In this document: positions 11,383-55,465 of the stretch, piece by piece
How positions within the stretch are numbered: position 1 is the stretch's first letter
How the letters are laid out: every line of letters starts with the position of its first letter
Virus record (IMG/VR): IMGVR_UViG_3300035182_001152
Reading direction: 5' to 3' (one strand)
Source of the DNA: a virus
Taxonomy: Duplodnaviria > Caudoviricetes
Length of the DNA: 64,000 nucleotides
The notes under the pieces: generated by a model
Database searches by the model: none
What the model was told of the DNA's origin: nothing
Seen by the model: the letters and a program-made list of their open reading frames with translations, nothing else
Program-made: the position numbers and the translations under genes

Positions 11383-12804
11383 ATGACAGATCCACGTACG
11401 TTCACCGTAAAGCAGTGTGAATCCTGCTACTCGCAGAAAAGTGGCGCATCTATCGCCAACGCTACGGGCTCACGTCGCGACTTCTTCAATGCCTTGGGTA
11501 AAGTAGGTGATCTGCAGGTACTAAACAGTGTTAGCGGTGGCACGATCGGTCGCGGACTGCGCAATCTCGCAAGCATCTCCAACTCAATTCGCGTTGGCCA
11601 AGGCGCTTTGCCATCATCTATCGGCACGTCCTTAGAGACAGGTGCGAACTGGGTGCTAGCTCAGACTGGCATCGCTCCTACCGTTGTCACAGCTGTACAG
11701 GGCTTCAATCCCGCAATTGCAAACCAAGCGTATGGACAAGCAAAAAGTGTGTTCTCTGACGTCAAATCAGGTAACTTCTCACTATCGAACATCCCGTATG
11801 TGCTGCAAGATTTTCAGAACCTGGAGCGTCTTGGCCGCAACATCTTTACCCCCGGTCTCGGCGATGTACAAACGGCTCTTGGGGAACATTGTGAAGCATC
11901 GCCATACGCTGTTGACCTGATTGCACGTGCACCAAAGTACAAATTCCTATTTGTTGTACAATTCATTGCAAACAAAGGCTACGGTGATTTGAGTGGTCAA
12001 GGTTTGAGTCCCCTAGACATGGCCTTCACCGTCAAGAAGGCTTCTCGTCCGAACTTGAAGTTCCACTACGACGACGTTAACTACTACAACTACCGTACAA
12101 AAGTTATCACCAAGACGGAGTTTGAAGAGATGAACATGTCGTTCTTGGACGATACGCAAAACATTGCAGGTCAATTCTATCACGCTTACATGCGTGCGAT
12201 GTCACCAATCACTGGCATTGAAGAATCAGGTGCGCTCGCTGACTTGCTTGAGCAGGGTGGCATGGACTTTGAAAATAAGACCCTAACAGCAAACCAAATT
12301 ATGAACACGATTGGTGCAAGTACGTACGCTGCTTCGTCTGGCACGCTTGCAAACGATACTAAAGACGTGTTCAAGGAAATTCGCCTATATCACCTGTTTG
12401 ATAACGGTAACCGGATGAACGTCTGGCGATTCTTCAACCCCAAGATCACATCGTTGAACCTCGACGAGCTTGACATGTCCATCGGCACCGAAGGCAGTGA
12501 ATTGTCAATCCAATTCACTTACGATAGTGTGTTCATGGATCCCGACGTTTCTCTGGCGGATGATAGCAAGTACAACTTGAAGCAAACACAACGTGGCGCA
12601 TTGTACCCCCTCAAGTACAACGGCAAAACGTCTGGTGCCAACTCACCAATTTCTACAACAACCAACATTAACGGCCAATCTACAGATTTGCTGGGTGGCT
12701 TGTCAAATACCGTTAGTGCGGTTGGTAACGCCGCCACAGCGGCCGTCGCTGATCTCAGCACCAAATTTAGCAGCGCAATTTCCAGTCTACCGTTTGGTAG
12801 TTAA
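11383..12804 (+). CDS. Putative baseplate/tail tube initiator (tube-like fold in C-terminal half)
   Basis: KKASRPNLKFHYDDVNYYNYRTKV...MSFLDD resembles tube/gp54-like proteins; position after gp19; assignment is inference. Confidence 0.6.
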   Translation: MTDPRTFTVKQCESCYSQKSGASIANATGSRRDFFNALGKVGDLQVLNSVSGGTIGRGLRNLASISNSIRVGQGALPSSIGTSLETGANWVLAQTGIAPTVVTAVQGFNPAIANQAYGQAKSVFSDVKSGNFSLSNIPYVLQDFQNLERLGRNIFTPGLGDVQTALGEHCEASPYAVDLIARAPKYKFLFVVQFIANKGYGDLSGQGLSPLDMAFTVKKASRPNLKFHYDDVNYYNYRTKVITKTEFEEMNMSFLDDTQNIAGQFYHAYMRAMSPITGIEESGALADLLEQGGMDFENKTLTANQIMNTIGASTYAASSGTLANDTKDVFKEIRLYHLFDNGNRMNVWRFFNPKITSLNLDELDMSIGTEGSELSIQFTYDSVFMDPDVSLADDSKYNLKQTQRGALYPLKYNGKTSGANSPISTTTNINGQSTDLLGGLSNTVSAVGNAATAAVADLSTKFSSAISSLPFGS

Positions 12805-42926: not shown

Positions 42927-43652
42927 GTGTTGAGAACAACGCTAGAGCACATGCAAAACACTCGCCGTCCCACAATCGAATCGCGGTTCACATGCCGCGC
43001 GTGCCACAAGGTGTTTGTCCTTGAGGATCGATTCCTGGCGCACGAGTGTAAGCAAATGAAACGTGAGGCAGAGCTGAAGTCTCCCGTCGGACAAATAGCT
43101 CTGCACTATTACCAGCTGTGGATGCGGGCTCAAAAACGTCTACCGCCACCAGCAGGTTCTTTCCTCGCTTCAAAGTACTTTCGCACATTCATTAACTTCG
43201 TCAAGTTCTGTCAACGTGTTGAACTGCCGCGGGTAGAGAAGTTCATTTGGCTAATGGTGACGAAGAACTATCCACCAACAATGTGGATGAACGATGATGT
43301 GTATGCGATTTACTTGGAATTCTGCGATCGAAAGACACCACCTTTGGATCAGGCGACACTATCAATCGATACGCTGATGAAGTATGCGGACACAAATGAA
43401 TTCGAGCTCCATGGGGTGTTTGATAAGATGCCAATCCAGACGATGATTCACCTGATTCAGGTGCGAAAGTTGTCCCCTTGGTTATTGCTATTCAGTAAAT
43501 CGTTCAAGAATGCATTCATCAACAGGACCAATCCTGAGCAGAAAGTGATTCTGGAACACATGATTCGGCCTGAGTATTGGCCGGACAAAATGGCGCAATA
43601 CCCTGCTGAGGTGGCTAAGATCAAGACGCTTGTCACCGCTATGGGGATCTGA
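42927..43652 (+). CDS. Hypothetical protein with C2H2-like zinc finger
   Basis: FTCRACHKVF...FLAHEC. Confidence 0.7.
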   Translation: MLRTTLEHMQNTRRPTIESRFTCRACHKVFVLEDRFLAHECKQMKREAELKSPVGQIALHYYQLWMRAQKRLPPPAGSFLASKYFRTFINFVKFCQRVELPRVEKFIWLMVTKNYPPTMWMNDDVYAIYLEFCDRKTPPLDQATLSIDTLMKYADTNEFELHGVFDKMPIQTMIHLIQVRKLSPWLLLFSKSFKNAFINRTNPEQKVILEHMIRPEYWPDKMAQYPAEVAKIKTLVTAMGI

Positions 43653-43672
43653 CGTACGGTGAGACTGCTGAC

Positions 43673-43679
43673 ATAAATA
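43673..43679 (+). promoter_or_regulatory. Late promoter (ATAAATA) heading the fibre/radical SAM operon
   Basis: ACATAAATA 28 nt upstream of 43708. Confidence 0.7.
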
Positions 43680-43707
43680 AGGTGAACACACTCTATCGAG
43701 GAACGCC

Positions 43708-45036
43708 ATGTCAGCATATCAAATCGACTTCTCAGATCCACTCAAGAATGGTTTTGCCATTTCTGATGGTAGCTTTAACGGCCCAGGTGGCTCCTCTGCA
43801 AATACATCGCTACGGTTGTATGGCCGTGGCGCACGTGAATGGGGTGAGGCAGTTGACGAGGATTTGGTCCGTCTGACTGAAAACTTCGCTGCTGCTTCAG
43901 CACCAAGCGTGCCGATTGCAGGCCAATTCTGGGTTGAATCATCTCTGTACTACCGCGACACATCGCTGGGAAGCGTTCTGCAAGGTTGGTACTTCTACGA
44001 CGTCAATTCTGTAGCAACGAACAAGTGGACACTTCTTGGAGGCACTGGCGTTGTCTCTGGTACAGCTCCTCTGTCGCCAGTTGAAGGACAGTACTACTAT
44101 GACGGTGGTGTTAACCAGCTGCAGGGCTATTTCTCACTTGGCCGCTATGAACCTCTGACATGGGTCACTCGTTCCAGCATGTCAGGTACAGGTGCTCCCG
44201 TATCGCCAGCCGTAGTCCCTCTCCAACAACTTCGTGTGTGGAACGCAGGCACAAGCGCATGGGTTTCCCCTTCTGTCACAGCTGTCACTGGTGGCACCCC
44301 ACCAGTTGGTGCTGTAGTGGGTTCGTTGTGGTTTAACACCACTACAGGTAACCTGCTTGTTTGGACGGGGGCGCAATGGCAACAACTGGTAGGTCCTGCC
44401 ATTTCTGGCGGGACATCAGCTGTCTCTGGTATTCTGAACATGAATACCTACAAGATCACCAACCTCGGCGCCCCGTCAGTTAGTACCGACGCCGCAACCA
44501 AGGGATACGTTGACAGTGTTGTTGGCGGCGTCGGTGGCTTCCTACCGCTAACAGGTGGTAGTCTGGCTGGTCCAGGCAATCTGAGTGTTGGTGGCACGTT
44601 GAACGTTGCAGGACTGGCTACTCTCGGCTCGGGCTACGTAAACTCAACGTTCTACGCTAACGTTGCTACGTTTGGTAGCACGGCAACTTTCAACTCAGGT
44701 CTGACATCTGTTGGTACAATTAACATCACCACTGGTAGCCTAAACGTCGCTGCTGGCGGCGGTAGCTTCAACGGCACGGTCAACGTGAACGGCTACAAGA
44801 TTGTCAATCTTGCAACTGGTACAAACGCCAACGACGCTGTTAACGTAGCACAAATGAATGCTGCCATTGCGGCTGGTGGTGTGGGTGCAACAACACCTGT
44901 AATCTACACCTCAGGCACTTATAAGGCTGGCGACATCTGCATTACCGGCGGTAAGATCTACATAGCAGTCGGTGGCGGTAGCGGTATCGCCCCGGGTGGT
45001 AACTGGAAACAAATCTGGCCTGCAACATACAGCTAA
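43708..45036 (+). CDS. Fibre-like virion protein
   Basis: N-terminal TSLRLYGRG..EWGE...LTENFA...P.P.AGQFW domain (paralog of 53654); Trp repeats; KITNLGAP..STDAATKGYVD and KIVNLATG..NDAVNVAQM fibre motifs. Confidence 0.8.
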   Translation: MSAYQIDFSDPLKNGFAISDGSFNGPGGSSANTSLRLYGRGAREWGEAVDEDLVRLTENFAAASAPSVPIAGQFWVESSLYYRDTSLGSVLQGWYFYDVNSVATNKWTLLGGTGVVSGTAPLSPVEGQYYYDGGVNQLQGYFSLGRYEPLTWVTRSSMSGTGAPVSPAVVPLQQLRVWNAGTSAWVSPSVTAVTGGTPPVGAVVGSLWFNTTTGNLLVWTGAQWQQLVGPAISGGTSAVSGILNMNTYKITNLGAPSVSTDAATKGYVDSVVGGVGGFLPLTGGSLAGPGNLSVGGTLNVAGLATLGSGYVNSTFYANVATFGSTATFNSGLTSVGTINITTGSLNVAAGGGSFNGTVNVNGYKIVNLATGTNANDAVNVAQMNAAIAAGGVGATTPVIYTSGTYKAGDICITGGKIYIAVGGGSGIAPGGNWKQIWPATYS

Positions 45037-45045
45037 AGCATAAAC

Positions 45046-46455
45046 ATGCCTCAAATCTCTACAACAACATCCGTTCCATCTGGATATGTAATCAGCACGA
45101 TGCAATCAGTCATCACTGCACTGATTGCAGCAATGGCAAGCGGCCAGACGGTGTATGCGTCTGACATTCGCTCAATGAACTCGAGTGTCTATGATCTCTG
45201 GCGAACCCACGCTCACACGGTGACAGACCGCCAAGGTATCGACACTTACGGTAACTTGACCGTGTACGGTAGCGGAGGAACGTCTATCGTCAACACCGCT
45301 TCAAACCTTGCGCTTGGCGCCGTGACAACTCCCTCTGGCATCGCTGCAGATCAAGTGATTACAGCCGCAGACATCAACGTGATGATTAACATGGTCAATT
45401 CCATGCAGTCACACACCCATACGATCACTGATAGTATCGGTGCTATATACTCGTCTCCAAACATCAATTTCTATTTCAATGGTTCTCCTAATCTGATCTC
45501 GGGTACAGACAGTGATGGCACTACCGGTGGCGATTATGCGAACATAACGTTTAAGACAGACGGGACGCTATTTCCCGAGGCACGTGGCACGTATTACTAC
45601 GGTGCAGTACAAGCTAACAACTGGATGACAAACAGCCCTGTTGATGCATTAACAGCTACAGGTTACCAGATTAAGGCACACATGGTAAGCGCAGATCTGG
45701 GGTATTGTCACTGGGGTGCTGGAACGTTTGACGCATGGTTGAATCTTGGTGTTAGTAACCTTGTTTGGTCGTGGGTGCAAAACAACGCGGGCGACTACGG
45801 TCAAGCAGTTGTTCAATTCCAAATCCGCGACATTAACACGCTAACGATTCTTGTTGACACACATGTGACTTTTCAAACCGGCTTTATTGCACCACTATCA
45901 CACTGCTGCTTCCCTGCGGATTCTTTCGTCTTAATGGACGATGGTAAGTGGAAGAAGATTCAAGACGTGAAGGCGGGTGATGTTGCCATGGGTATGGGCA
46001 AGCCCGTGATGATCAACAGCGTAGAGAAGCCACGTCTAGGCGAGCGCAGGATGATGCAATTTGGCGACAAGTCGCTGGCGTGGTCAGAAGAACACGCAAT
46101 GTGGACCCGCGACAACGCAGGTTCACAGTGGTGGTGGTCTGCTAACGCTGATATGTGGCGTGCTGAAGTGAGTGTAGGCGTAATGGGCGGGTTGAAGGAC
46201 AACTCAACGATGCGCTCTGGTACCAATGTGTCTGACTGGGCTCACCTGGATGGCTGGAAGGCTAATACTGTGACTACGATCCCTGCAGACGCAACGACTC
46301 CATTGTATCTCCCACGCACGGGCGGTTCTCCTATTATCGTCAACGGCTACGTTGTTGGCGCTGGTGTTGATGAAACCGGCTTTGAGTACTCAAAGCTGGA
46401 CTGGGATGCTGTACGCGCAATGCTTCCTGTTGTTGACCCACTCCCAACAGCGTAA
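45046..46455 (+). CDS. Hint (Hedgehog/BIL-type) domain protein
   Basis: Hint starts at Cys288 (45907): CFPADSFVLMDDGKWKKIQDVKAGDV; block B-like SEEH; ends IIVNGYVVGA without terminal HN. Confidence 0.8.
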   Translation: MPQISTTTSVPSGYVISTMQSVITALIAAMASGQTVYASDIRSMNSSVYDLWRTHAHTVTDRQGIDTYGNLTVYGSGGTSIVNTASNLALGAVTTPSGIAADQVITAADINVMINMVNSMQSHTHTITDSIGAIYSSPNINFYFNGSPNLISGTDSDGTTGGDYANITFKTDGTLFPEARGTYYYGAVQANNWMTNSPVDALTATGYQIKAHMVSADLGYCHWGAGTFDAWLNLGVSNLVWSWVQNNAGDYGQAVVQFQIRDINTLTILVDTHVTFQTGFIAPLSHCCFPADSFVLMDDGKWKKIQDVKAGDVAMGMGKPVMINSVEKPRLGERRMMQFGDKSLAWSEEHAMWTRDNAGSQWWWSANADMWRAEVSVGVMGGLKDNSTMRSGTNVSDWAHLDGWKANTVTTIPADATTPLYLPRTGGSPIIVNGYVVGAGVDETGFEYSKLDWDAVRAMLPVVDPLPTA

Positions 46456-46476
46456 GGTAATAACGAGGGAACAGAT

Positions 46477-46680
46477 ATGTCAGAAAACCTAAGTACAAAA
46501 ACGACGACATCCCCTGCGGTTCCGAATGTGAACCCAGGAGACCCAATTACGTCTACCACGTTTGAAGCAATGCTGAACGTGTTGAACGAACTCGTGAACC
46601 ACACTCACATTTTCTACGACGACTACAGCACTGCGTGCAACTGTAACTGCAACTGCGCCTGTTCACGCGGCATCCTCTAA
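46477..46680 (+). CDS. Cys-rich peptide, candidate radical SAM substrate (C-terminal CNCNCNCAC)
   Basis: GAGGGA SD, 67 aa, five Cys in the last 14 residues, directly upstream of radical SAM genes. Confidence 0.8.
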   Translation: MSENLSTKTTTSPAVPNVNPGDPITSTTFEAMLNVLNELVNHTHIFYDDYSTACNCNCNCACSRGIL

Positions 46681-46698
46681 CAGAGGCGTTATAACCAT

Positions 46699-47595
46699 AT
46701 GAAATACATCCTTGTTCGCCAAGGAGGTAATCGTGCTTCTGCCTTCTCAGACATCGTTGAGCAGGTCAATTATCAAGACGTACCCCAGGTTGGCTTCTAC
46801 ACGCAAGTAGCACCGAGTATGCGGTTAATTCGTAACCGCACTACCGACAATCACGATTCCCCCTTTGCGATTGCCCGATTCCACGTCGACCCAGCACTGA
46901 AGGTCCAGCCTCCGTCACACTTTCGTCGAATTGACATGAGGGCTGTCGAACGGATGATGACAAACCACAAGTACGTGATATACGGTGTCGTCAATCCAAC
47001 TCACCACGTAATTGATCACACAGTCCTTGACGGTGCTGTGTACGTCGCGCGGGATGCTGACGGTAAGTTGATCAATGCCCAAACAGGAGATGTCCTTGGT
47101 GACTCCAAGGTAACGTTTATGACGGTGTTCTTTGCGTTTGTGCGCGTCAAGGGGTTGCCGATCTATCTGATGGTACTCAATCCAAATCTACTCAGTGCGA
47201 CGGATGGGTTTGATTGTTATCACGAAGAAACGGACACCAAGTGGATCATGTTGCCGGAACGTGACAACGCGCTGATCGAGCGAGTGTTTACGCCGCAAAT
47301 ATATGACGGCACGTTGATTGGTAATGTGATTGTGCGCGATGAGGGTGATGGACAGCCGATGATCCAACTGTTCAACGATCCATGCGGCATCCTGTACGAC
47401 GAAAAGCACCTTCGCTCTGATGTGTTCATTAACGGTGTCGCAACGATTGATACCAATCTAAGCGTGTTTACAATGGACGGCGCTGTCCGCATTAGCAGTC
47501 AAGGCCGTGGGTACGTTCGAATTGTATTTGACCTTGGTGACTACTTCAATCTGTCACGGACCGAACACCCTGCACTGGAGTACGTCGTACTATGA
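46699..47595 (+). CDS. Hypothetical protein in radical SAM operon
   Basis: 298 aa; GAGG SD; stop overlaps next ATG. Confidence 0.75.
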   Translation: MKYILVRQGGNRASAFSDIVEQVNYQDVPQVGFYTQVAPSMRLIRNRTTDNHDSPFAIARFHVDPALKVQPPSHFRRIDMRAVERMMTNHKYVIYGVVNPTHHVIDHTVLDGAVYVARDADGKLINAQTGDVLGDSKVTFMTVFFAFVRVKGLPIYLMVLNPNLLSATDGFDCYHEETDTKWIMLPERDNALIERVFTPQIYDGTLIGNVIVRDEGDGQPMIQLFNDPCGILYDEKHLRSDVFINGVATIDTNLSVFTMDGAVRISSQGRGYVRIVFDLGDYFNLSRTEHPALEYVVL

Positions 47596-49262
47596 GCACA
47601 GCTGTCATTAAGTTCTACCCAAAGCGAACACTAACGCAAGCCCAACAGCAACGGATTGTTGATCACCAACCTTCCGTGCGAATCAATGACGACGGCACAT
47701 TTGATACGTCTGTCCGCACAATCATCACCCCAAAAGGCGATGTCAAGGAGGTGTCGTATAAGACGATTCGTCCAGGTGTGCACGAGCGAATGATGAAGAC
47801 AGCTGACGTATATGACTTGTTTGAAGACCTTCAACACATGAACCTGATTGTCACAAACGCGTGTAACCTCAGTTGTTCCTACTGCTACGAGCAGCATAAC
47901 AAAGATTACGGTCGATTCACAAACGAAAGCCTAAAACAGCTATACAACTTCCTCGTCGCGTGCAACCCAAACAGCGGCAAGCTGTTTCAGTTCTTTGGTG
48001 GCGAACCCCTGATCCACAAGCAGTTGATTCTCGATTTTATCGCCAAATATCGTGACGAACTGCAGGCAAACAGTAAGACAACTGCCGTTAGCATTATCAC
48101 CAACGGTATTCTGTTAACGCCAGAATTCATCAACGAGTACTTTGCGAATGACTTCGTTTGTATGAGCGTTAGCCTCGATACGGATGATGCTGAGATTGAT
48201 CACCGTGAGATTGGCCAGGCTCGGATCGACAAAATCATCAACATGATTGGTCTAATCCCCTCGTACCACAAAGACAATCATATGGTTAGCGTCCGTTGCA
48301 CGATCGCAATGGAGAATGCTCCGCGGCTAGTTGAGTTCGCCAAACGCTTGTATGACAAGGGTCTTCGAGCAATGGTAATTCATCCGCTGACGATGAGTTC
48401 CGTTAACGGCCACATGATATGGAATACTGAAGATTGGAACAACCTCCACACTAGCGTTAGCCACATCATCAAGACGCTGCCTAACTTCGAGGTTCAATTC
48501 TCAGAGGGTGTCGGTGCCAAGGGCGGCAACAACTGCATGGTTGGTTCTGACATGATCGCTGTTGACGCGTCGGGTGATTACTCCGGTTGCCATTTCTTCA
48601 CAAACCAGAAGGAGGCGGCCGCTCATACGATCCTTGGTAACTTGCTGCTGGACCAAGTGTACGTTGACCGGTACATGAAGTTCCAAGAAACGTACGACCA
48701 GATGTTCACATCGGAGCCACAATGTCAAGCCTGCGATCTCAAGGGTTTCTGCTACCAATGCCCTGCAGGCAATTCTGATTCTGGTCGTGGCCAGCTGTTC
48801 CGGCCAGACGATATGTGCCAGAGCATTGTACGTCTGTTCCTCGAACTGCAGAATGACATCGTGCGCAAGACATTCAACGCTAAGCTACAGGAGCTGATTG
48901 GTTCTGTACAGCAGTACGGTGAACACTATGTGTTCAGTAAGGCAATTGTACACCTCCACCACTTCTACAAGAATGGTCAGCATGCCACTGACGTTCAAGT
49001 TGATCCCAACCTCCCATACGAATACCTCGCCGCCGGTTTTATGGCAACAATTACCGGTGGCGACGCTAGCGTTCCGGTTGACATCAAGAGTTTGTATGAG
49101 GCGTTGATGCGCAGTAAGGGCAAACCAGTTAACGCGAGTATGGCACAGGGTACAGCTGATGACATCAACAAGCGTATCTTCTACCTAGCCCTACTACACA
49201 TGGTTGTGCTGAACAAGAAGGGTGATGACTTGTCAAAACCGCACAAAATCATTAAGCTGTAA
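47592..49262 (+). CDS. Radical SAM/SPASM maturase 1
   Basis: CNLSCSYC, FFGGEP, ITNG, NNC...GDYSGCH, CQACDLKGFCYQC...C. Confidence 0.93.
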   Translation: MSTAVIKFYPKRTLTQAQQQRIVDHQPSVRINDDGTFDTSVRTIITPKGDVKEVSYKTIRPGVHERMMKTADVYDLFEDLQHMNLIVTNACNLSCSYCYEQHNKDYGRFTNESLKQLYNFLVACNPNSGKLFQFFGGEPLIHKQLILDFIAKYRDELQANSKTTAVSIITNGILLTPEFINEYFANDFVCMSVSLDTDDAEIDHREIGQARIDKIINMIGLIPSYHKDNHMVSVRCTIAMENAPRLVEFAKRLYDKGLRAMVIHPLTMSSVNGHMIWNTEDWNNLHTSVSHIIKTLPNFEVQFSEGVGAKGGNNCMVGSDMIAVDASGDYSGCHFFTNQKEAAAHTILGNLLLDQVYVDRYMKFQETYDQMFTSEPQCQACDLKGFCYQCPAGNSDSGRGQLFRPDDMCQSIVRLFLELQNDIVRKTFNAKLQELIGSVQQYGEHYVFSKAIVHLHHFYKNGQHATDVQVDPNLPYEYLAAGFMATITGGDASVPVDIKSLYEALMRSKGKPVNASMAQGTADDINKRIFYLALLHMVVLNKKGDDLSKPHKIIKL

Positions 49263-50050
49263 TGATGAAAACAACACACATTGCATTTTACCAAGACGCT
49301 CTGTACGACTGTCCTCTTCTCCGTGGTCAGGTGCTAACCGATATCGACGACCTGCGACTGTTCATGGAATATCACGCATTCGCAGTGTGGGATTTCATGT
49401 CGCTGATCAAATCGCTCCAGAACCATATTGTACCGTCGGGCAATGTGTGGCTTCCGTCACCCGAATCGACAGCTGTTGGTCGATTGATCAACGAAATTGT
49501 CCTGTGCGAGGAAACAGACGACAACCTCGGCGGTGGTCATATTAGCCACTTCGATCTGTACATCACTGCGATGAATGAAGTTGGCGCCAACACAAAGCCG
49601 ATCCTGTCATTCATCAACAAACTGCGAACCAATCGCAAGCTCAGCTTAAACCAGTTGCTGCTAGAACTCCCTCTGCCAGCACGGAAGTTCTGTGAGAGTA
49701 CTTTTGCAGTAATTGCTACCGATCAACCCCATAAGATTGCCGGGGCGTTCGCCTTTGGTCGCGAACGGGTAATCCCGTCAATGTTCACGCAGATCCTCTC
49801 TCAGATGGAGGCCACTGGAATCCAAGCACCAAAGTTCAAGTACTACCTTGAGCGTCACATTGACGTTGACGGGAACGCACACGGCCCAGCTGCGCTTGAT
49901 ATGGTTGATTATCTGTGTGGGGATGACCCAGTCAAGCACCTGGAAGCGGAACGAGCTGCATTGGATGCAATCCACGCTCGGATCACGCTATGGAAGGACG
50001 TACAGCGAGTGATTGAAGACGTCAAGCGTGTCAAGTTTGGAGCAGCATGA
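49262..50050 (+). CDS. DUF3050-like heme-oxygenase-fold diiron oxidase (HDO)
   Basis: FMEYHAFAVWDFMSL, INEIVLCEETD, SHFDLY, FAFGRE..IP, YYLERHIDVDGNAHG. Confidence 0.82.
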   Translation: MMKTTHIAFYQDALYDCPLLRGQVLTDIDDLRLFMEYHAFAVWDFMSLIKSLQNHIVPSGNVWLPSPESTAVGRLINEIVLCEETDDNLGGGHISHFDLYITAMNEVGANTKPILSFINKLRTNRKLSLNQLLLELPLPARKFCESTFAVIATDQPHKIAGAFAFGRERVIPSMFTQILSQMEATGIQAPKFKYYLERHIDVDGNAHGPAALDMVDYLCGDDPVKHLEAERAALDAIHARITLWKDVQRVIEDVKRVKFGAA

Positions 50051-51120
50051 CGACACCAACACTCTCCGGATGCAAGAATATCAGCATCTACCTCGGCAAT
50101 GTTTGCAACTTCAATTGCACATATTGTGACAGAGACTACATCAAGGAGTCGATCGGTGGTCAACATATGACCACCGAGGATATTCCAAAGATCGTTGAGT
50201 TCCTCCAAGCTTCTGGTATAGCTGACAACCCCCCGGAAATGTTTAGCTTCCATGGTGGTGAGCCGTTCACATACGTCAAGATCATGGACAAAATCATGGA
50301 CGCAGTAACGTCAGCTGTCCCTGGCGACTATCCGCTATACATTCAAACGAATGGTAGCCAGATGCTTCAGCATCGATGGTTCTTTGAGAAGTGGGGTAGT
50401 CGCCTTGAGATTAGCATCAGCTACGACTTCTTGTACCAAGACATTAACCGCACCCTGTTTGAGATCAACCCTACGCTGGAAATGTTGAACCAGAACGGTG
50501 TTCGTGGAATCCAGTTCCAATACGTGATGCCAATCTCTAATCCGAAGGTGTTTAGCCTATCAGCATTGAAGGCGATCACTAACTTGTGCCACAAGAACGG
50601 TGTCAAACGGGTTAACCTAATCCCACTGCGGCACATTCGGGGCAAAGACAAGTTCAAGGTGATCCTTGACGACCTTGATATTCCACAGTTCTTCGATGCG
50701 TTCATCAAGTTCATCCACATGCTGTATGTGATGAACATTGACGTTACAGTTGATGGTCACGGTGTTGGATTTGACAAGCACTATTTCTACAACCATAAGT
50801 TAATGGTGTTGTCACCAGATGGTAACATCTATCCCGAATACGACTTCCTCGAATACAAGCGCGAAGAGACGATCATCGGTCAGTGGCGAGAGCAGCAAGT
50901 TATCGAGCGTGTCCGTGATAATGAAGATGACATGCTGCAACCGAAGTGTGTTACGTGCCCATCCCGCCCACTGTGTGGGCTAAAGTACTTACATGGGATG
51001 TTTGGTACTGACCCAGCAACGGATAAGTGTGCGCAGTTCTATCAGATGCTGATGGTTACGATCCAGCACGCACAAAAACTAAAACAACAACCAAGCTTCT
51101 TGCATTGGGTCGGAATATGA
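50047..51120 (+). CDS. Radical SAM protein 2 with partial SPASM domain
   Basis: CNFNCTYC, FHGGEP, QTNG; DGNIYPE (Cys replaced); CVTCPSRPLC...C. Confidence 0.9.
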   Translation: MTTPTLSGCKNISIYLGNVCNFNCTYCDRDYIKESIGGQHMTTEDIPKIVEFLQASGIADNPPEMFSFHGGEPFTYVKIMDKIMDAVTSAVPGDYPLYIQTNGSQMLQHRWFFEKWGSRLEISISYDFLYQDINRTLFEINPTLEMLNQNGVRGIQFQYVMPISNPKVFSLSALKAITNLCHKNGVKRVNLIPLRHIRGKDKFKVILDDLDIPQFFDAFIKFIHMLYVMNIDVTVDGHGVGFDKHYFYNHKLMVLSPDGNIYPEYDFLEYKREETIIGQWREQQVIERVRDNEDDMLQPKCVTCPSRPLCGLKYLHGMFGTDPATDKCAQFYQMLMVTIQHAQKLKQQPSFLHWVGI

Positions 51121-52301
51121 CAACAGAACAACGGCACTTCACACCCAGTGTACAGAACGTAACGAACTTCAAGGAATACTTCCTACAGTACGACGGGTTG
51201 AATCACGTCAGCCAAGAGCTTGGCTTTTCCCTGTTTAAGCGGTACACGTGTAAAGCAGGATGCAAGATGTGTTACTTGCAGAACGACTGGATCGCTGACG
51301 AAGACTTCGGTATCTTCATTCCAAAGGAAATTGACGATCACACTGAAGCTCGCCTTTTGTCATTCTTTGAAGCGTTTTCTGACGTCGGCACGTATGATGA
51401 TTTGGCATATTTGAAACGAGCGCACCCACACCTGTATGAGTTCTACAAGAAGCACAGCCACCGCCTCGTTAATACATCAATGTCAGACACCGCTTTCATT
51501 CAGCAGTACCCACTGCTGATGAATGAGCTCAACTTCAAGGGAATCTACGAGATTACGTTTAGTGATGTGTTCCTAAACAAAAAGAGTGGTGGCTTAGCGC
51601 ATGATATAGTCAATATGCTGAAGCCTCTCCACGCAAAGATGCCCCTGCTAAAGATCAAGGTTGTACGAATCACACAGGAAGGTGAGAAGTCTGATGCCGT
51701 CAAGAAGGTCGTCGACTATGCACACAGTATTGGCATAGCAGTTGGCCTGCAAGACGATATCGTCAAGGGCGACAACAACAAGTTGAGCCTTGATGTTGCT
51801 GACTACCAAGAGCTGAATTATTTCGCTCAAGGGTCTGAGCCGATGCAGGTCCTATCAGAGATTACCTACCTGCAATACACGTCGTCGTTTATGACCCTGA
51901 CCGACACAGTATCGCCAACAAGTGTTCCATTCTTTGATGTATTGTCAACGGACGACATCAGCGTATTCCTGTACAACTCCTTAGATGCTAAGTTAAAGAC
52001 GTACACCCGATACACCAAGGAAATGGATAACACATGCGGCAACAAGCTGTTCGACTACTTTGCGTACGTATCAACGTCGGTTGTGCTACATCCAAAGTTT
52101 AACTTCATCCCCCGGATGTCGCTGAAGCCGTGGACGGCAATGTACCATAAGCTGATAGCTCAGGGTTGGACGGAGACCAAGCTTGGTCTGTATCGACCGA
52201 ACGGTGAGCCAGTGACACCAATCTTTACGATCAGCACAAAGCCAAAGCAGAAAATCTATCACATCCCAATCAAGTGCACTCCTGTAGGAGCAACTGTATG
52301 A
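51117..52301 (+). CDS. Divergent radical SAM-like protein 3
   Basis: CKAGCKMC (CxxxCxxC) near N-terminus; no GGEP or SPASM seen; ATG 51117 overlaps previous TGA. Confidence 0.65.
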   Translation: MTTEQRHFTPSVQNVTNFKEYFLQYDGLNHVSQELGFSLFKRYTCKAGCKMCYLQNDWIADEDFGIFIPKEIDDHTEARLLSFFEAFSDVGTYDDLAYLKRAHPHLYEFYKKHSHRLVNTSMSDTAFIQQYPLLMNELNFKGIYEITFSDVFLNKKSGGLAHDIVNMLKPLHAKMPLLKIKVVRITQEGEKSDAVKKVVDYAHSIGIAVGLQDDIVKGDNNKLSLDVADYQELNYFAQGSEPMQVLSEITYLQYTSSFMTLTDTVSPTSVPFFDVLSTDDISVFLYNSLDAKLKTYTRYTKEMDNTCGNKLFDYFAYVSTSVVLHPKFNFIPRMSLKPWTAMYHKLIAQGWTETKLGLYRPNGEPVTPIFTISTKPKQKIYHIPIKCTPVGATV

Positions 52302-53584
52302 GTCTGACCAAATTTGAGATCGTTCGCACAGGCGAACATTTCTACTACAACAACGAGAACAACGGCTTGCTGGACGCCAACGGTAACAGCCTTAGCCGTG
52401 CTTTTGTACCCCCAGCTGATTGGAATCAGCTGGAAGACCGATTCGGTCGCACAGATGTTGTCAAGAACCCCGAAACAATCAAGATCACCCTGGGGCACGG
52501 TTGCAATTACAGTTGTGGCTACTGCATGCAAAAGGACATTGGCAATCCCGACGAGCGACCGGTCAATGGTCTAACACCAATGCTGATCAGCAAGATCCGC
52601 CGCCACCTGGATCTGTCTGAGACGACACGGATTGAACTGTGGGGCGGTGAAACGCTACTGTATTGGAAAGACATGATGCCGATCATGGAAGAATTTGATC
52701 GTGAGGGAGTTACTTGGTACATCCCAACCAATGGTACTCCCCTGATGCACAAGCACATTGACTTCTTCATGAGGTTGAAGGGCAGGGTTGCAATGGGGAT
52801 CTCTCATGATGGGCCTGCGCATGAGATTACGCGAGGCAAGGAGTTCCTGCACAAGAAGGTTGACGTGTTCAAGCGGATCGAAACGGAGTGTGGTGAGCAG
52901 GTACAGTACAGCTTCAACCCCGTTATCAGTCGTACAAATTACGATCTGTTCGAGATCAACGACTTCTTTGTTCGATTCTTTGACGAGCACAGCTTGAAGT
53001 ACAAACAGCTGAGTTTCGAACTCGGGCGCGTGTACGACGAGACGATGGCAAAGAACTCAACGCACCACGTGATCAATGGTGAGCATATCCCAGCGTATAG
53101 GGACGTTCTGACGCGATACATGGATGCTCATATTGAGCAATTCCAACGGCTTGGTGGGGTTACACAAGCTCCCCTACTGGCGAACAATCTGTTCCATACA
53201 GGCATGGGCGTTCTCCCGTATGTGCGTTCGCTGCAGGAGCAAAAGGTTCCCTTGTTGAAGACGAACTGCGGGGTGGACGACAGTCGGTTGATGAGCATGG
53301 ACACGATGGGCAACGTCCGCACCTGCCAAAACACCGACGAATCGTACAATGGCGGCAACTTGATGTACATCAAGGGCATTCGAATCCAACGTGTTGATCT
53401 CAATCGTGATGCACACTGTGGGTCATGTGAAGTCCGTCGTCTCTGCAAGAGCTCATGCCCACTTGACCTCGGATCGGCAACGTTCCAAACCAATTGTGCT
53501 GTTGAGAAGACGCACTACCGGGCGATCCAGTTGGCTGCATTCAAGTTGTTGTTTGACAGTGAGATTCGCATGATTGGCCAGTGA
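52298..53584 (+). CDS. Radical SAM/SPASM maturase 4
   Basis: CNYSCGYC, LWGGET, PTNG, TNCG...GNVRTC, CGSCEVRRLCKSSCP...C; ATG 52298. Confidence 0.92.
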   Translation: MSLTKFEIVRTGEHFYYNNENNGLLDANGNSLSRAFVPPADWNQLEDRFGRTDVVKNPETIKITLGHGCNYSCGYCMQKDIGNPDERPVNGLTPMLISKIRRHLDLSETTRIELWGGETLLYWKDMMPIMEEFDREGVTWYIPTNGTPLMHKHIDFFMRLKGRVAMGISHDGPAHEITRGKEFLHKKVDVFKRIETECGEQVQYSFNPVISRTNYDLFEINDFFVRFFDEHSLKYKQLSFELGRVYDETMAKNSTHHVINGEHIPAYRDVLTRYMDAHIEQFQRLGGVTQAPLLANNLFHTGMGVLPYVRSLQEQKVPLLKTNCGVDDSRLMSMDTMGNVRTCQNTDESYNGGNLMYIKGIRIQRVDLNRDAHCGSCEVRRLCKSSCPLDLGSATFQTNCAVEKTHYRAIQLAAFKLLFDSEIRMIGQ

Positions 53585-53653: not shown

Positions 53654-55465
53654 ATGACCAATTACGTATTCAAGCACAGCGACCCTGCAGCAGGTTCGTT
53701 TCTAGTTCAAGCAGACCAGATCGACGGTACGTCGCGTCCTGGTAATGCGGCATTGTACATCAACCCCGTCTCAGGCCTCTCTGCAATCTCAGCCAATTCC
53801 TCTCTCGTCTTCGCTGGACAGGGAATTGTTGACTACGGCGAACTAGTGCAGAACAATCTGATCTACTTGATGGAGCACTTTGCCTATGCAACACGCCCTC
53901 TAAAGCCTGTACAGGGTCAGATTTGGTACAAAAACGCAGCAGGTGTAGACCCGTCCTTCCCGAGCGACCCATCTTCGGTCGGTCTTTATCTGTGGACAGG
54001 ATCACTCTGGACGCCGATCATTACTGGTGCAGGCGGCGTACTTGACATGGGCGGCGCTCGTGTAGCTAACGTTGGAGATGCAATATCCGCCGGTGACGCA
54101 GTTAGCCGTGGCTACGCAGATGCACGCTACTTGCAGCTGTCTGGCGGCACAATGACCGGTGCAGTTATGGTTGCATCAGGCAACTGGACATTTAATTCCG
54201 GCGTTTCTCTGTCAGTGACAAACGCTCCGACAACCAGTTTGCATGTTGCCAATAAGGCATACGTAGACGCTGCTTCTGCCACGTCTGCCGGCCTAGTTTC
54301 TACTGAAGCTACTACCCGCGCAGCAGCTGATAGCGCACTTTCGTCCAGCATCTCTACGATCAACTCACAACTGCCAAACTTTGTTCAAGTTACTGGCGAT
54401 ACGATGACAGGCACACTGTCGATCGACTCTGGCGGTGGTATCGTTGCCCTCAACGGTTCCGGCACTATTAGTTTTGGCTCTCGTCGCTTGCAGCTCGTCG
54501 GAGACCCTATTCTAAACACTGACGCGGCAAACCGAATCTACGTTGATACAGCGATCGCTACGGCAATTGCGGGCGTTGGCGCTGGATCTAGTGATGGTGT
54601 AGTTGTTAGTGGTGACTTGAATTCATCAACTGGCGTGTTGACTCTTCAGCGCAGCATGGGTCTCTCAGACGTGGTTGTAGTCGGCTCGTTCGCTCCATTC
54701 TCACACGCCCACCCTGCGACCGCGGTTACATACGATCTGTCGTACGTGTATCCACAAAGCTACTTGACGACGTCGGAAGTAGGTGACACAGGCTTCCCCA
54801 ATGTCCAACTGCAAGACATTATTCGCACAATTGACCAAAATTTGACGACATTGAACCGTTGCGTTGTTCGCAAATTGGCCGTCGGCGACGGCATAACTAC
54901 TACATATTCCGTAGGCGCTGTTGGTACCTACACTGTGGGAGATAATCGTCTGCAGGTGTTTGTTGATGGTGTCAAACAGTACGCTAGTGAGCACGGGATC
55001 AGCACTGTTGTATTCACAGATACGGGTATTGGATATCGATCAGTAATCCCAGGCGTCACGGGTGCGCCTCTCGTGTTCAACATCGCAGTGGACAGTGGTC
55101 CTCCAACAACTGTTTCAATTCCAACAGGGGCGGGATACACGTACTTGCAGTATTTCATTGACCTGCAGGCTGCTTTTAGTACACTGTCTATCCCTGCACA
55201 AGTTCGTGCGGACCAATTCTTTGACCGCATTGAGTTGTACTTTGTGTCCAACACTTCAGGTGCAGGATCTAGTGTATTAGTATCAAACACAGCAGGCCAA
55301 GCTTTTACTGTGATTACCACAGCGTCTGCGCCTGTTAACACGTCTGTGACAACGTCATACTCCTACAGCGAAGTCGGCAACCCTGGTGCAGATTCAACCT
55401 CCATCACATTCAACGTAGCACCTGATGCGGGTTCTGTTGTTGAATTTCTAACCTTCCCTGCTTAA
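53654..55465 (+). CDS. Fibre-like virion protein (paralog of 43708)
   Basis: SSLVFAGQG..DYGE...LMEHFA...P.QGQIW; DAVSRGYAD, ANKAYVD, AANRIYVD repeats. Confidence 0.8.
   Translation: MTNYVFKHSDPAAGSFLVQADQIDGTSRPGNAALYINPVSGLSAISANSSLVFAGQGIVDYGELVQNNLIYLMEHFAYATRPLKPVQGQIWYKNAAGVDPSFPSDPSSVGLYLWTGSLWTPIITGAGGVLDMGGARVANVGDAISAGDAVSRGYADARYLQLSGGTMTGAVMVASGNWTFNSGVSLSVTNAPTTSLHVANKAYVDAASATSAGLVSTEATTRAAADSALSSSISTINSQLPNFVQVTGDTMTGTLSIDSGGGIVALNGSGTISFGSRRLQLVGDPILNTDAANRIYVDTAIATAIAGVGAGSSDGVVVSGDLNSSTGVLTLQRSMGLSDVVVVGSFAPFSHAHPATAVTYDLSYVYPQSYLTTSEVGDTGFPNVQLQDIIRTIDQNLTTLNRCVVRKLAVGDGITTTYSVGAVGTYTVGDNRLQVFVDGVKQYASEHGISTVVFTDTGIGYRSVIPGVTGAPLVFNIAVDSGPPTTVSIPTGAGYTYLQYFIDLQAAFSTLSIPAQVRADQFFDRIELYFVSNTSGAGSSVLVSNTAGQAFTVITTASAPVNTSVTTSYSYSEVGNPGADSTSITFNVAPDAGSVVEFLTFPA

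Follow-up and report, generated by a model that had tools for sequence, protein, structure and literature searches.

Organization of the locus

The genes described here lie on the plus strand of a 64,000-nucleotide stretch of viral DNA (Duplodnaviria; Caudoviricetes; IMG/VR record IMGVR_UViG_3300035182_001152), referred to below as the window. Two adjacent genes are of concern: one encodes a protein with a C-terminal Hint (bacterial intein-like) domain, hereafter the Hint protein, and the other, immediately 3' of it, a small peptide with a Cys/Asn-rich tail. They are preceded by a gene for a fibre-like protein and followed by a cassette of radical S-adenosylmethionine (SAM) enzymes (Table 1). 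The N-terminal part of the peptide, its apparent "leader", is a copy of a module that the Hint protein carries twice, and the evidence below suggests that the three copies assemble as one unit.

The peptide gene has GAGG 9 nucleotides 5' of its ATG codon. The start of the Hint protein at position 45046 is taken to be right, because its 15 full-length homologues also conserve the N-terminus MPQxxVTTSxPxGY.

Three copies of one module

Comparison at the amino acid level indicates that two stretches near the N-terminus of the Hint protein (repeats 1 and 2) and one in the peptide are copies of a single module of approximately 30-45 residues, each with a Thr-rich lead-in, an amphipathic helix and an HxHxxxD motif. 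The preliminary description of the window had given translations of these stretches, which are exactly as written, and had aligned all three under the pattern IT[AS]xx[IF]xxM[IL]NxxNxxxxHTHxxxD. This pattern is exact for repeat 2 and the peptide but only approximate for repeat 1, which has HAH instead of HTH and requires a one-residue gap to align with the peptide.

Similarity was assessed by comparing Smith-Waterman scores with those of 20,000 shuffles, and the resemblance that had been claimed is significant for two of the three pairs. Repeats 1 and 2 score 51 (shuffled: 18.3 ± 3.7) and repeat 2 and the peptide score 55 (shuffled: 18.6 ± 4.0), with 0/20,000 shuffles as high in either case. 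When the HxHxxxD anchor is removed, repeat 2 and the peptide still score 32 (shuffled: 15.4 ± 3.4), a value reached by 12 of the 20,000 shuffles; the likeness thus exceeds the anchor. Repeat 1 and the peptide, compared alone, score 18 against 16.6 for shuffled sequences, which is not significant, and repeat 1 appears to be tied to the peptide through repeat 2 only.

Family profiles give a similar picture. Using hhalign, the expect value (E) is 2.8e-7 for the peptide leader and repeat 2, 8.8e-11 for repeats 1 and 2, and 0.003 for the peptide and repeat 1, compared with 0.45 for a control in which the peptide was set against the remainder of the Hint protein. A BLASTP alignment of peptide residues 2-48 with Hint residues 85-129 has an E of 2e-5. 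By BLASTP, profiles and shuffles alike, copy 2 is the nearer of the two Hint repeats to the peptide module. A module hidden Markov model (HMM) run over all six frames of the window recovers exactly these three copies. The likeness also reaches 5' of the module copies listed in Table 1, into a Thr-rich "TTxP" segment.

The Hint protein (45046-45090) and the peptide (46477-46530) both start with a Thr-rich "TT(T)SxP" segment.

Within the module, the histidines and the following aspartate are nearly invariant. H55, H57 and D61 of copy 1 and H123, H125 and D129 of copy 2 are invariant in the 15 homologues of the Hint protein, and M32, L36, L39, H42, T43, H44, F46 and D48 are invariant in 36 homologues of the peptide. 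An Asp at position +4 of HxH is found in 69/69 peptide motifs and in 279/296 motifs of the two-module family. Chance resemblance between short helical, His-containing stretches could be argued from their length of just 28-29 residues and from the non-significant comparison of repeat 1 with the peptide, but the shuffle and profile results, together with recurrence of the three-way likeness in every related locus, leave it with practically no probability.

Pairing and copy number in related loci

The peptide is accompanied by a two-module protein well beyond the window. A gene with two HxH motifs lies just 5' of a peptide relative in 18/18 IMG/VR loci (17 by HMM, and L033 by inspection), and likewise in loci L001, L004-L007, L011 and L013 and in phage RP12. 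The pairing is kept even where the partner matches the profile at an E of only ~1e-4 (L011 and L013), the adjoining small open reading frames (ORFs) there being peptides of the same kind.

The preliminary description had named the Hint protein as the partner of the peptide. The two are indeed paired in the window, but the true partner is the small two-module domain; most relatives lack the Hint domain. The family phrog_31780, to which no function is assigned, is matched by residues 5-129 of the Hint protein (E 1.8e-13, profile positions 6-122 of 125), and a search of 1.84 billion representatives with a profile of this N-domain found 179 clusters, nearly all of them stand-alone proteins of 120-140 residues. 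Exactly two HxH motifs are present in 137 of the 147 two-module representatives inspected. These proteins lack a Cys-rich segment, and the chain mostly stops a few residues past the second HxHxxxD. The Hint fusion type is confined to 2 of the 18 IMG/VR loci; elsewhere the partner is usually 116-158 residues long. Radical SAM cassettes accompany the two-module gene in nearly every context inspected.

The total of three modules is also kept when the genes are arranged differently. In L008 the split is 1+2: a one-module protein of 84 residues is accompanied by a two-module protein of 135 residues with a GGNCNCNCDCTRGRM tail, the latter followed by a radical SAM/SPASM gene. Three other proteins (P0268, P0233 and P0197, the last on a contig of only 1.3 kb) carry three modules in a single chain with no Cys tail, and separate HMMs class these modules as repeat 1, repeat 2 and peptide type, colinear with the gene order in the window. 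The existence of both the 1+2 split and the colinear single-chain fusions suggests that the three modules form one unit. No radical SAM gene was found within reach in the gene lists of P0268 and P0233, suggesting that the module can exist apart from the enzymes. Some members (P0150 and P0240) have a domain of approximately 300 residues inserted between modules 1 and 2, which fits two modules that meet in space.

In L029 (4868-5184), the two-module gene is split into overlapping frames (69 and 54 residues), reflecting either a frameshift or a sequencing error; the gene is intact (116 residues) in the near-identical L030.

Predicted complex of the Hint N-domain and the peptide

A multimer prediction, which the preliminary description had proposed as a check, supports binding of the peptide by the Hint N-domain. 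Modelled together, Hint residues 1-140 and the peptide reached a score of 0.67 (runs: 0.42, 0.70 and 0.67), compared with 0.00 for the best of three controls. The score reflects the confidence of a model rather than a measured interaction. In calibration, the mark was reached by 58/80 solved complexes and by 2/110 mismatched pairs, figures that are a rough guide here because custom alignments were used. The runs share at least 60% of contacts, and the partner has a predicted local distance difference test (pLDDT) value of at least 62.

In the predicted interface, peptide residues 26-49 face Hint helices 16-30, 44-52 and 110-121. The lowest-error contacts are those between the peptide helix (residues 28-41) and these same three helices, which match the helices of the monomer model. 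The modelled interface residues include Hint H57, H123 and H125 and peptide H42 and H44. Profiles of the N-domain and the peptide, when compared with all PDB sequences (E up to 1), gave no relevant match (only an aldolase, at E 0.3). As no solved structure resembles either partner by sequence, it is unlikely that the complex passed from model memory.

The complex model also pairs the two N-termini (Hint residues 3-11 with peptide residues 1-10). Modelling of a single-chain relative was not informative: AF2 of the three-module P0268 without an alignment reached a pLDDT of 31 and was unusable, and a mixed alignment for this protein (A4) was not used because it placed repeat 2 of the two-module family on the third module.

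The module had been described at the outset as a trimeric coiled-coil/HxH assembly module. Its role in assembly is supported by the complex model, the constant pairing and the fusions; the trimer as such is not, since the evidence points to a two-chain, three-module unit with an extra N-terminal helix and not to a homotrimer. If each protein instead trimerized alone through its helix and HxH motif, the two would share descent without binding one another. Known HxH sites are built in this way, by three identical chains (PMC6116203), and self-association is plausible for the peptides of L002 and L003, which have no nearby partner gene. Separate homotrimers would nevertheless fit poorly with a 2+1 copy count kept across very divergent pairs and with the score of the heteromer relative to its controls; the L008 split and the colinear fusions would be hard to explain, and a trimer of the two-module chain would gather six HxH motifs, not three. 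We consider this arrangement improbable.

The Cys-rich tail of the peptide

Relatives of the peptide fall into 67 homologous clusters. In the peptide alignment, C54, C56, C58, C60, C62, R64 and G65 are invariant, and variants of the core occur. Conservation runs unbroken from the helix via HTHIFYDDYSTACNCNCNC to RGIL and is strongest in the tail, a pattern unlike that of a variable core behind a leader.

The neighbourhood has one feature of a radical SAM/SPASM-class precursor with a cleavable leader: a small ORF encoding a Cys-rich C-terminal core adjoins a SPASM maturase. The other components of such systems were sought among the neighbours. No PqqD or RiPP recognition element (RRE) domain was found in the cluster proteins using Pfam, nor did the first enzyme show one in its N-terminal 85 residues (E up to 10), although divergent RREs can escape Pfam (RiPP: peptide made on the ribosome and modified after translation). 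No peptidase, exporter or transporter was recognized, using Pfam, PHROG and NCBIfam, among the cluster neighbours, two of which (298 and 394 residues) are unassigned.

Interpretation: a probable split three-module unit

We favour the reading, to which we give a probability of about 0.65, that the "leader" of the peptide is not disposable but is the retained docking module of a split, three-module and probably metal-binding unit. The two N-terminal copies of the Hint protein (140 residues) and the one copy of the peptide would fold together, with the peptide helix docking into a bundle with the Hint N-terminal helix and both repeat helices. Docking would set three HxH motifs, with six histidines, at the interface, and this six-His site may hold a metal ion, by analogy with trimeric phage fibres and spikes. 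The docked peptide would fix one Cys/Asn-rich tail onto a two-module protein, and the adjacent radical SAM/SPASM enzymes would presumably cross-link this tail. The unit may have a place on the virion, near the fibres. Retention of the leader fits the locus because no peptidase, exporter or PqqD-like domain was found, because the tail is the most conserved part, and because there is no attenuator between the genes.

In the competing explanation, the peptide module is a recognition element for the radical SAM enzymes or an accessory protein and is removed afterwards, which would make the two-module protein a leader-binding chaperone like PqqD, a decoy or regulator, or a second substrate. In the window, SPASM-type radical SAM genes lie directly 3' of a small ORF whose C-terminus is Cys-rich, as expected of such a system, and the two-module gene is found beside radical SAM cassettes in nearly all contexts inspected. 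The predicted binding would also suit a chaperone, and structured, protein-derived leaders are known, for example those of the NHLP type (PMC12537861). The two-module proteins, however, offer no Cys-rich segment for modification, and the three-module chains lack the Cys tail, two of them having gene lists with no radical SAM gene within reach. The near-invariant HxHxxxD in all three copies suits an intrinsic site better than a docking tag, the removal and export machinery noted above was not detected, and it is the tail, not the "leader", that is most conserved. We regard a cleaved leader as unlikely. The more specific proposal of the preliminary description, that the module is a shared enzyme tag with the Hint protein as a second substrate, is disfavoured by the missing Cys-rich segment and by the gene lists of P0268 and P0233, in which no radical SAM gene is within reach.

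Several observations weigh against the retained docking module. A precursor of the classical kind, with a leader that is cleaved off, would likewise have an N-terminal region, a Cys-rich C-terminus and SPASM enzymes encoded next to it. Confidence in the N-domain monomer model is only moderate (pLDDT ~60-68). Metal binding is proposed by analogy, the module having no detectable sequence relation to solved HxH fibres, and the suggested convergence of the six histidines is read from interface positions in the model and not from measured geometry. The two-module protein and its neighbours are missing from the list obtained by mass spectrometry of the RP31 virion, which counts only weakly, as just excised gel bands were analysed. 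Finally, in L002 and L003, whose peptides end in CCIRGMVW, the available 7-13 kb contain no two-module gene, suggesting that the partner is not always adjacent or that these peptides self-associate.

If the favoured reading is correct, the small gene encodes one third of a split module that docks on its neighbour and carries a tail for cross-linking, and it is not the precursor of a diffusible natural product. RiPP-type radical SAM chemistry would then mature a phage protein complex, which would change the view of phage "RiPP-like" clusters. A more elaborate version is tentative, and on balance we doubt it: a pseudo-trimeric six-His metal site built from two gene products would hold a Cys/Asn ladder that is cross-linked by the radical SAM enzymes, the full-length product would be a permanent, stapled part of a fibre-associated virion structure, and, in this lineage, the Hint domain of the partner would release itself by cleavage, with the thioester so formed available to join the complex covalently to another component.

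The Hint domain

The C-terminal domain of the Hint protein (180 residues) was identified by structure comparison, its model having a pLDDT of 80-93 over much of its length. Foldseek matched it to the bacterial intein-like (BIL) domains BIL2 (6y75; E 6.5e-6, template modelling [TM] score by target 0.70) and the BIL of C. thermocellum (2lwy; TM 0.74), as well as to inteins and Hedgehog (1at0). The nucleophile C288 and the block-B (T/S)xxH motif, here S347-E-E-H350, are invariant in the 15 homologues. Pfam cut-offs were not reached (Hint: 17.9 versus 29.7 bits; Hom_end_hint: 17.0 versus 32.1 bits); precomputed PF05203 matches are found on many homologues. The beta-rich middle and the self-cleaving Hint domain are lineage-specific additions to a protein that is otherwise 125-160 residues long.

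The Hint C-domain alone (50-60% identity) terminates many other phage proteins whose differing N-terminal parts include collar, collagen, Gp38 and Gly-rich domains, and it also ends proteins of Achromobacter phages JWF and 2-1. As such it resembles a mobile, general, self-cleaving end-piece of fibre-like proteins.

Neighbouring genes

The virus of the window is a large myovirus with genes for a tail sheath, a head-tail adaptor and fibre-like proteins. The window's proteins are recorded on a 206-kb contig, and relatives are found on contigs of up to 379 kb. The module genes belong to a run of closely spaced plus-strand genes spanning 43708-53584. A scan for promoter- and terminator-like sites (plus strand, 43400-47800) found none between the peptide gene and either neighbour, and regional totals were about those of shuffled sequences.

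Table 1. Features of the module genes and their surroundings in the window.
Feature	Coordinates	Strand	Basis
Fibre-like protein gene, 442 residues, directly 5' of the Hint gene	43708..45036	+	PHROG tail fibre phrog_2710, E 1e-12
Hint protein gene, 469 residues: two-module N-domain, beta-rich middle, C-terminal Hint domain	45046..46455	+	ORF
N-terminal helix, Hint residues 16-31, predicted packing partner of the three module helices	45091..45138	+	AF2 helix; residues 16-30 in predicted peptide interface
Module copy 1, Hint residues 33-61, helix then HAHTVTD	45142..45228	+	HMM domain score 49.3
Module copy 2, Hint residues 102-129, helix then HTHTITD	45349..45432	+	HMM domain score 47.4
Hint (bacterial intein-like) domain from Cys288	45907..46455	+	Foldseek; invariant C288, S347-x-x-H350
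Peptide gene, 67 residues: variable N-terminus, module copy 3, Cys/Asn tail	46477..46680	+	ORF
Module copy 3, peptide residues 21-48, helix then HTHIFYD	46537..46620	+	HMM score 60.7
Alternating Cys core CNCNCNCAC, Cys54-Cys62, then SRGIL	46636..46662	+	Invariant residues in alignment
Conserved 298-residue protein, function unassigned, always 3' of the peptide gene	46699..47595	+	Same position in relatives
First radical SAM/SPASM maturase-like gene of downstream cassette	47592..49262	+	Pfam Radical_SAM, 7.8e-16
DUF3050 protein	49262-50050	+	
Radical SAM enzyme	50047-51120	+	
Protein of 394 residues, function unassigned	51117-52301	+	
Radical SAM enzyme	52274-53584	+	

The fibre-like protein encoded 5' of the Hint gene has weak Pfam matches to YadA_stalk and T7 tail fibre, and in L001 and RP12 the same position is occupied by a fibre-like or "virion structural" gene. 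This gene and another at 53654-55465 both match phrog_14394 and phrog_2647 near their N-termini, so that the radical SAM block sits between two related fibre-like genes. The fibre-like protein ends (45000-45036) in ...GGKIYIAVGG...NWKQIWPATYS, and an 87-residue ORF in L008 (962-1225) ends in ...GGKIYMKLGGVWKQIFPAIYS; from their sequences, a C-terminal motif looks to be common to the gene that precedes the module genes in the window and in L008.

A gene for a protein of ~255-316 residues follows the peptide in RP12, L013, L033 and the other loci inspected, as the 298-residue protein does in the window. This protein has no Pfam, PHROG or NCBIfam match, and an Atlas search gave no useful information (its best feature score was 0.81, with a structure TM <0.4). 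Lenient Pfam scans of the enzyme N-termini and of the 298- and 394-residue proteins gave nothing useful. L003 (566-6696), with its CCIRGMVW-type variant of the peptide, has four paralogues of the ~300-residue post-peptide protein.

Among NCBIfam models, the PapB ranthipeptide maturase fits the first radical SAM/SPASM enzyme best (1.2e-36; 126.7 bits versus a cut-off of 340). The DUF3050 (HamA_HO-like) gene within the cassette has counterparts in L011 (7657-8403) and L033 (4760-5506, minus strand); it is absent from L001 and RP12 and is thus an optional part of the system.

Comparison with known systems

The two-module part of the Hint protein belongs to phrog_31780, whose members mostly stand alone at the size of the matched region. 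The window member differs in its added beta-rich and Hint domains, and the annotations inspected record no link between this family and the peptide.

The same gene order is found in the ORF074/ORF70 region of the Ralstonia phages RP12 and RP31 (Ripduovirus, phiKZ-related jumbo phages; PMC5468394): two YomR-like "virion structural" genes, the two-module gene, the peptide, a gene for ~295 residues, two radical SAM genes, a gene with no assignment, and a further radical SAM gene. In contrast to the window, the two-module protein of these phages is 125 residues long with no Hint domain, the peptide gene is unannotated, and the RP12 cassette has no DUF3050 gene. The peptide ORF, of 65 residues and ending in HTHVFYDNYGSNCNCNCACTRGSL, lies at 12462-12659 of the RP12 locus L010 (NC_041911 82888-83085), in the 280-bp gap between ORF074 and ORF075, and is also present in RP31. 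The RP12/RP31 paper lists the cassette enzymes merely as "other genes" (PMC5468394). Among 50,697 phage records, RP12 and RP31 are the only two isolates with a detectable relative of the peptide. In the isolate phage collection, blastn with the window region gave only a chance-like match of 62 bases to a Gordonia phage, and tblastn with the Hint N-domain and with P0216 gave nothing. RP12 and RP31 thus offer a cultured-phage system with a 125-residue partner, a 65-residue peptide and three radical SAM enzymes.

We found no description of the module or the peptide in the literature on phage RiPP, radical SAM and fibre systems, and neither radical SAM maturation of a phage complex nor a heteromeric six-His site was found in the literature searched; a cyanophage paper (PMC12801897) concerns unrelated genes. 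New here are the Hint-fused variant, the complex model that passed for the pair, and the 18/18 count.

Ranthipeptide and sactipeptide systems (PapB/freyrasin, SCIFF/CteB and NxxcB) share with the window a small gene with a Cys-rich C-terminus beside radical SAM/SPASM enzymes. Here, the enzyme falls far below the family cut-off, no RRE, protease or exporter was found in the cluster, and the host genome is that of a phage. In addition, the window "leader" is homologous to a neighbouring protein and is predicted to bind it, and the tail is nearly invariant. Protein-like RiPP leaders of the NHLP and Nif11 types (PMC12537861) are comparable in having a long, structured N-terminal region with homology to a family of stand-alone proteins. 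Leaders of the NHLP type engage the enzymes that carry out modification and are removed, whereas the stand-alone homologue here is encoded next door and is the apparent binding partner, and removal is doubtful; the two have no sequence relation.

A further parallel is with trimeric fibres and spikes. Octahedral six-His iron sites formed from three HxH motifs occur in pyocin fibres, T4 gp37, and the P2 and phi92 spikes, and buried HxH metals have been proposed to serve in folding as points at which three segments are brought into register (PMC6116203). The likeness to T4 gp37 that the preliminary description had drawn holds insofar as HxH is present in all copies, and stays an analogy, with no sequence match to a solved structure. 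As in the iron or zinc sites of the T4 gp37 needle, T4 gp12, the R1/R2 pyocin fibre shaft, and the P2 gpV and phi92 spike apex, there are three HxH motifs per unit, in a phage and near fibre-like genes. The window modules are unlike these sites in that HxH follows an amphipathic helix and has an invariant Asp at +4, and in lacking detectable sequence similarity to solved structures. The fibre sites are built from three identical chains, whereas the copies described here are distributed over two chains (2+1 or 1+2) or lie on one. If the proposed unit forms as predicted, it would be a heteromeric answer to a six-His site that is normally built from three identical chains.

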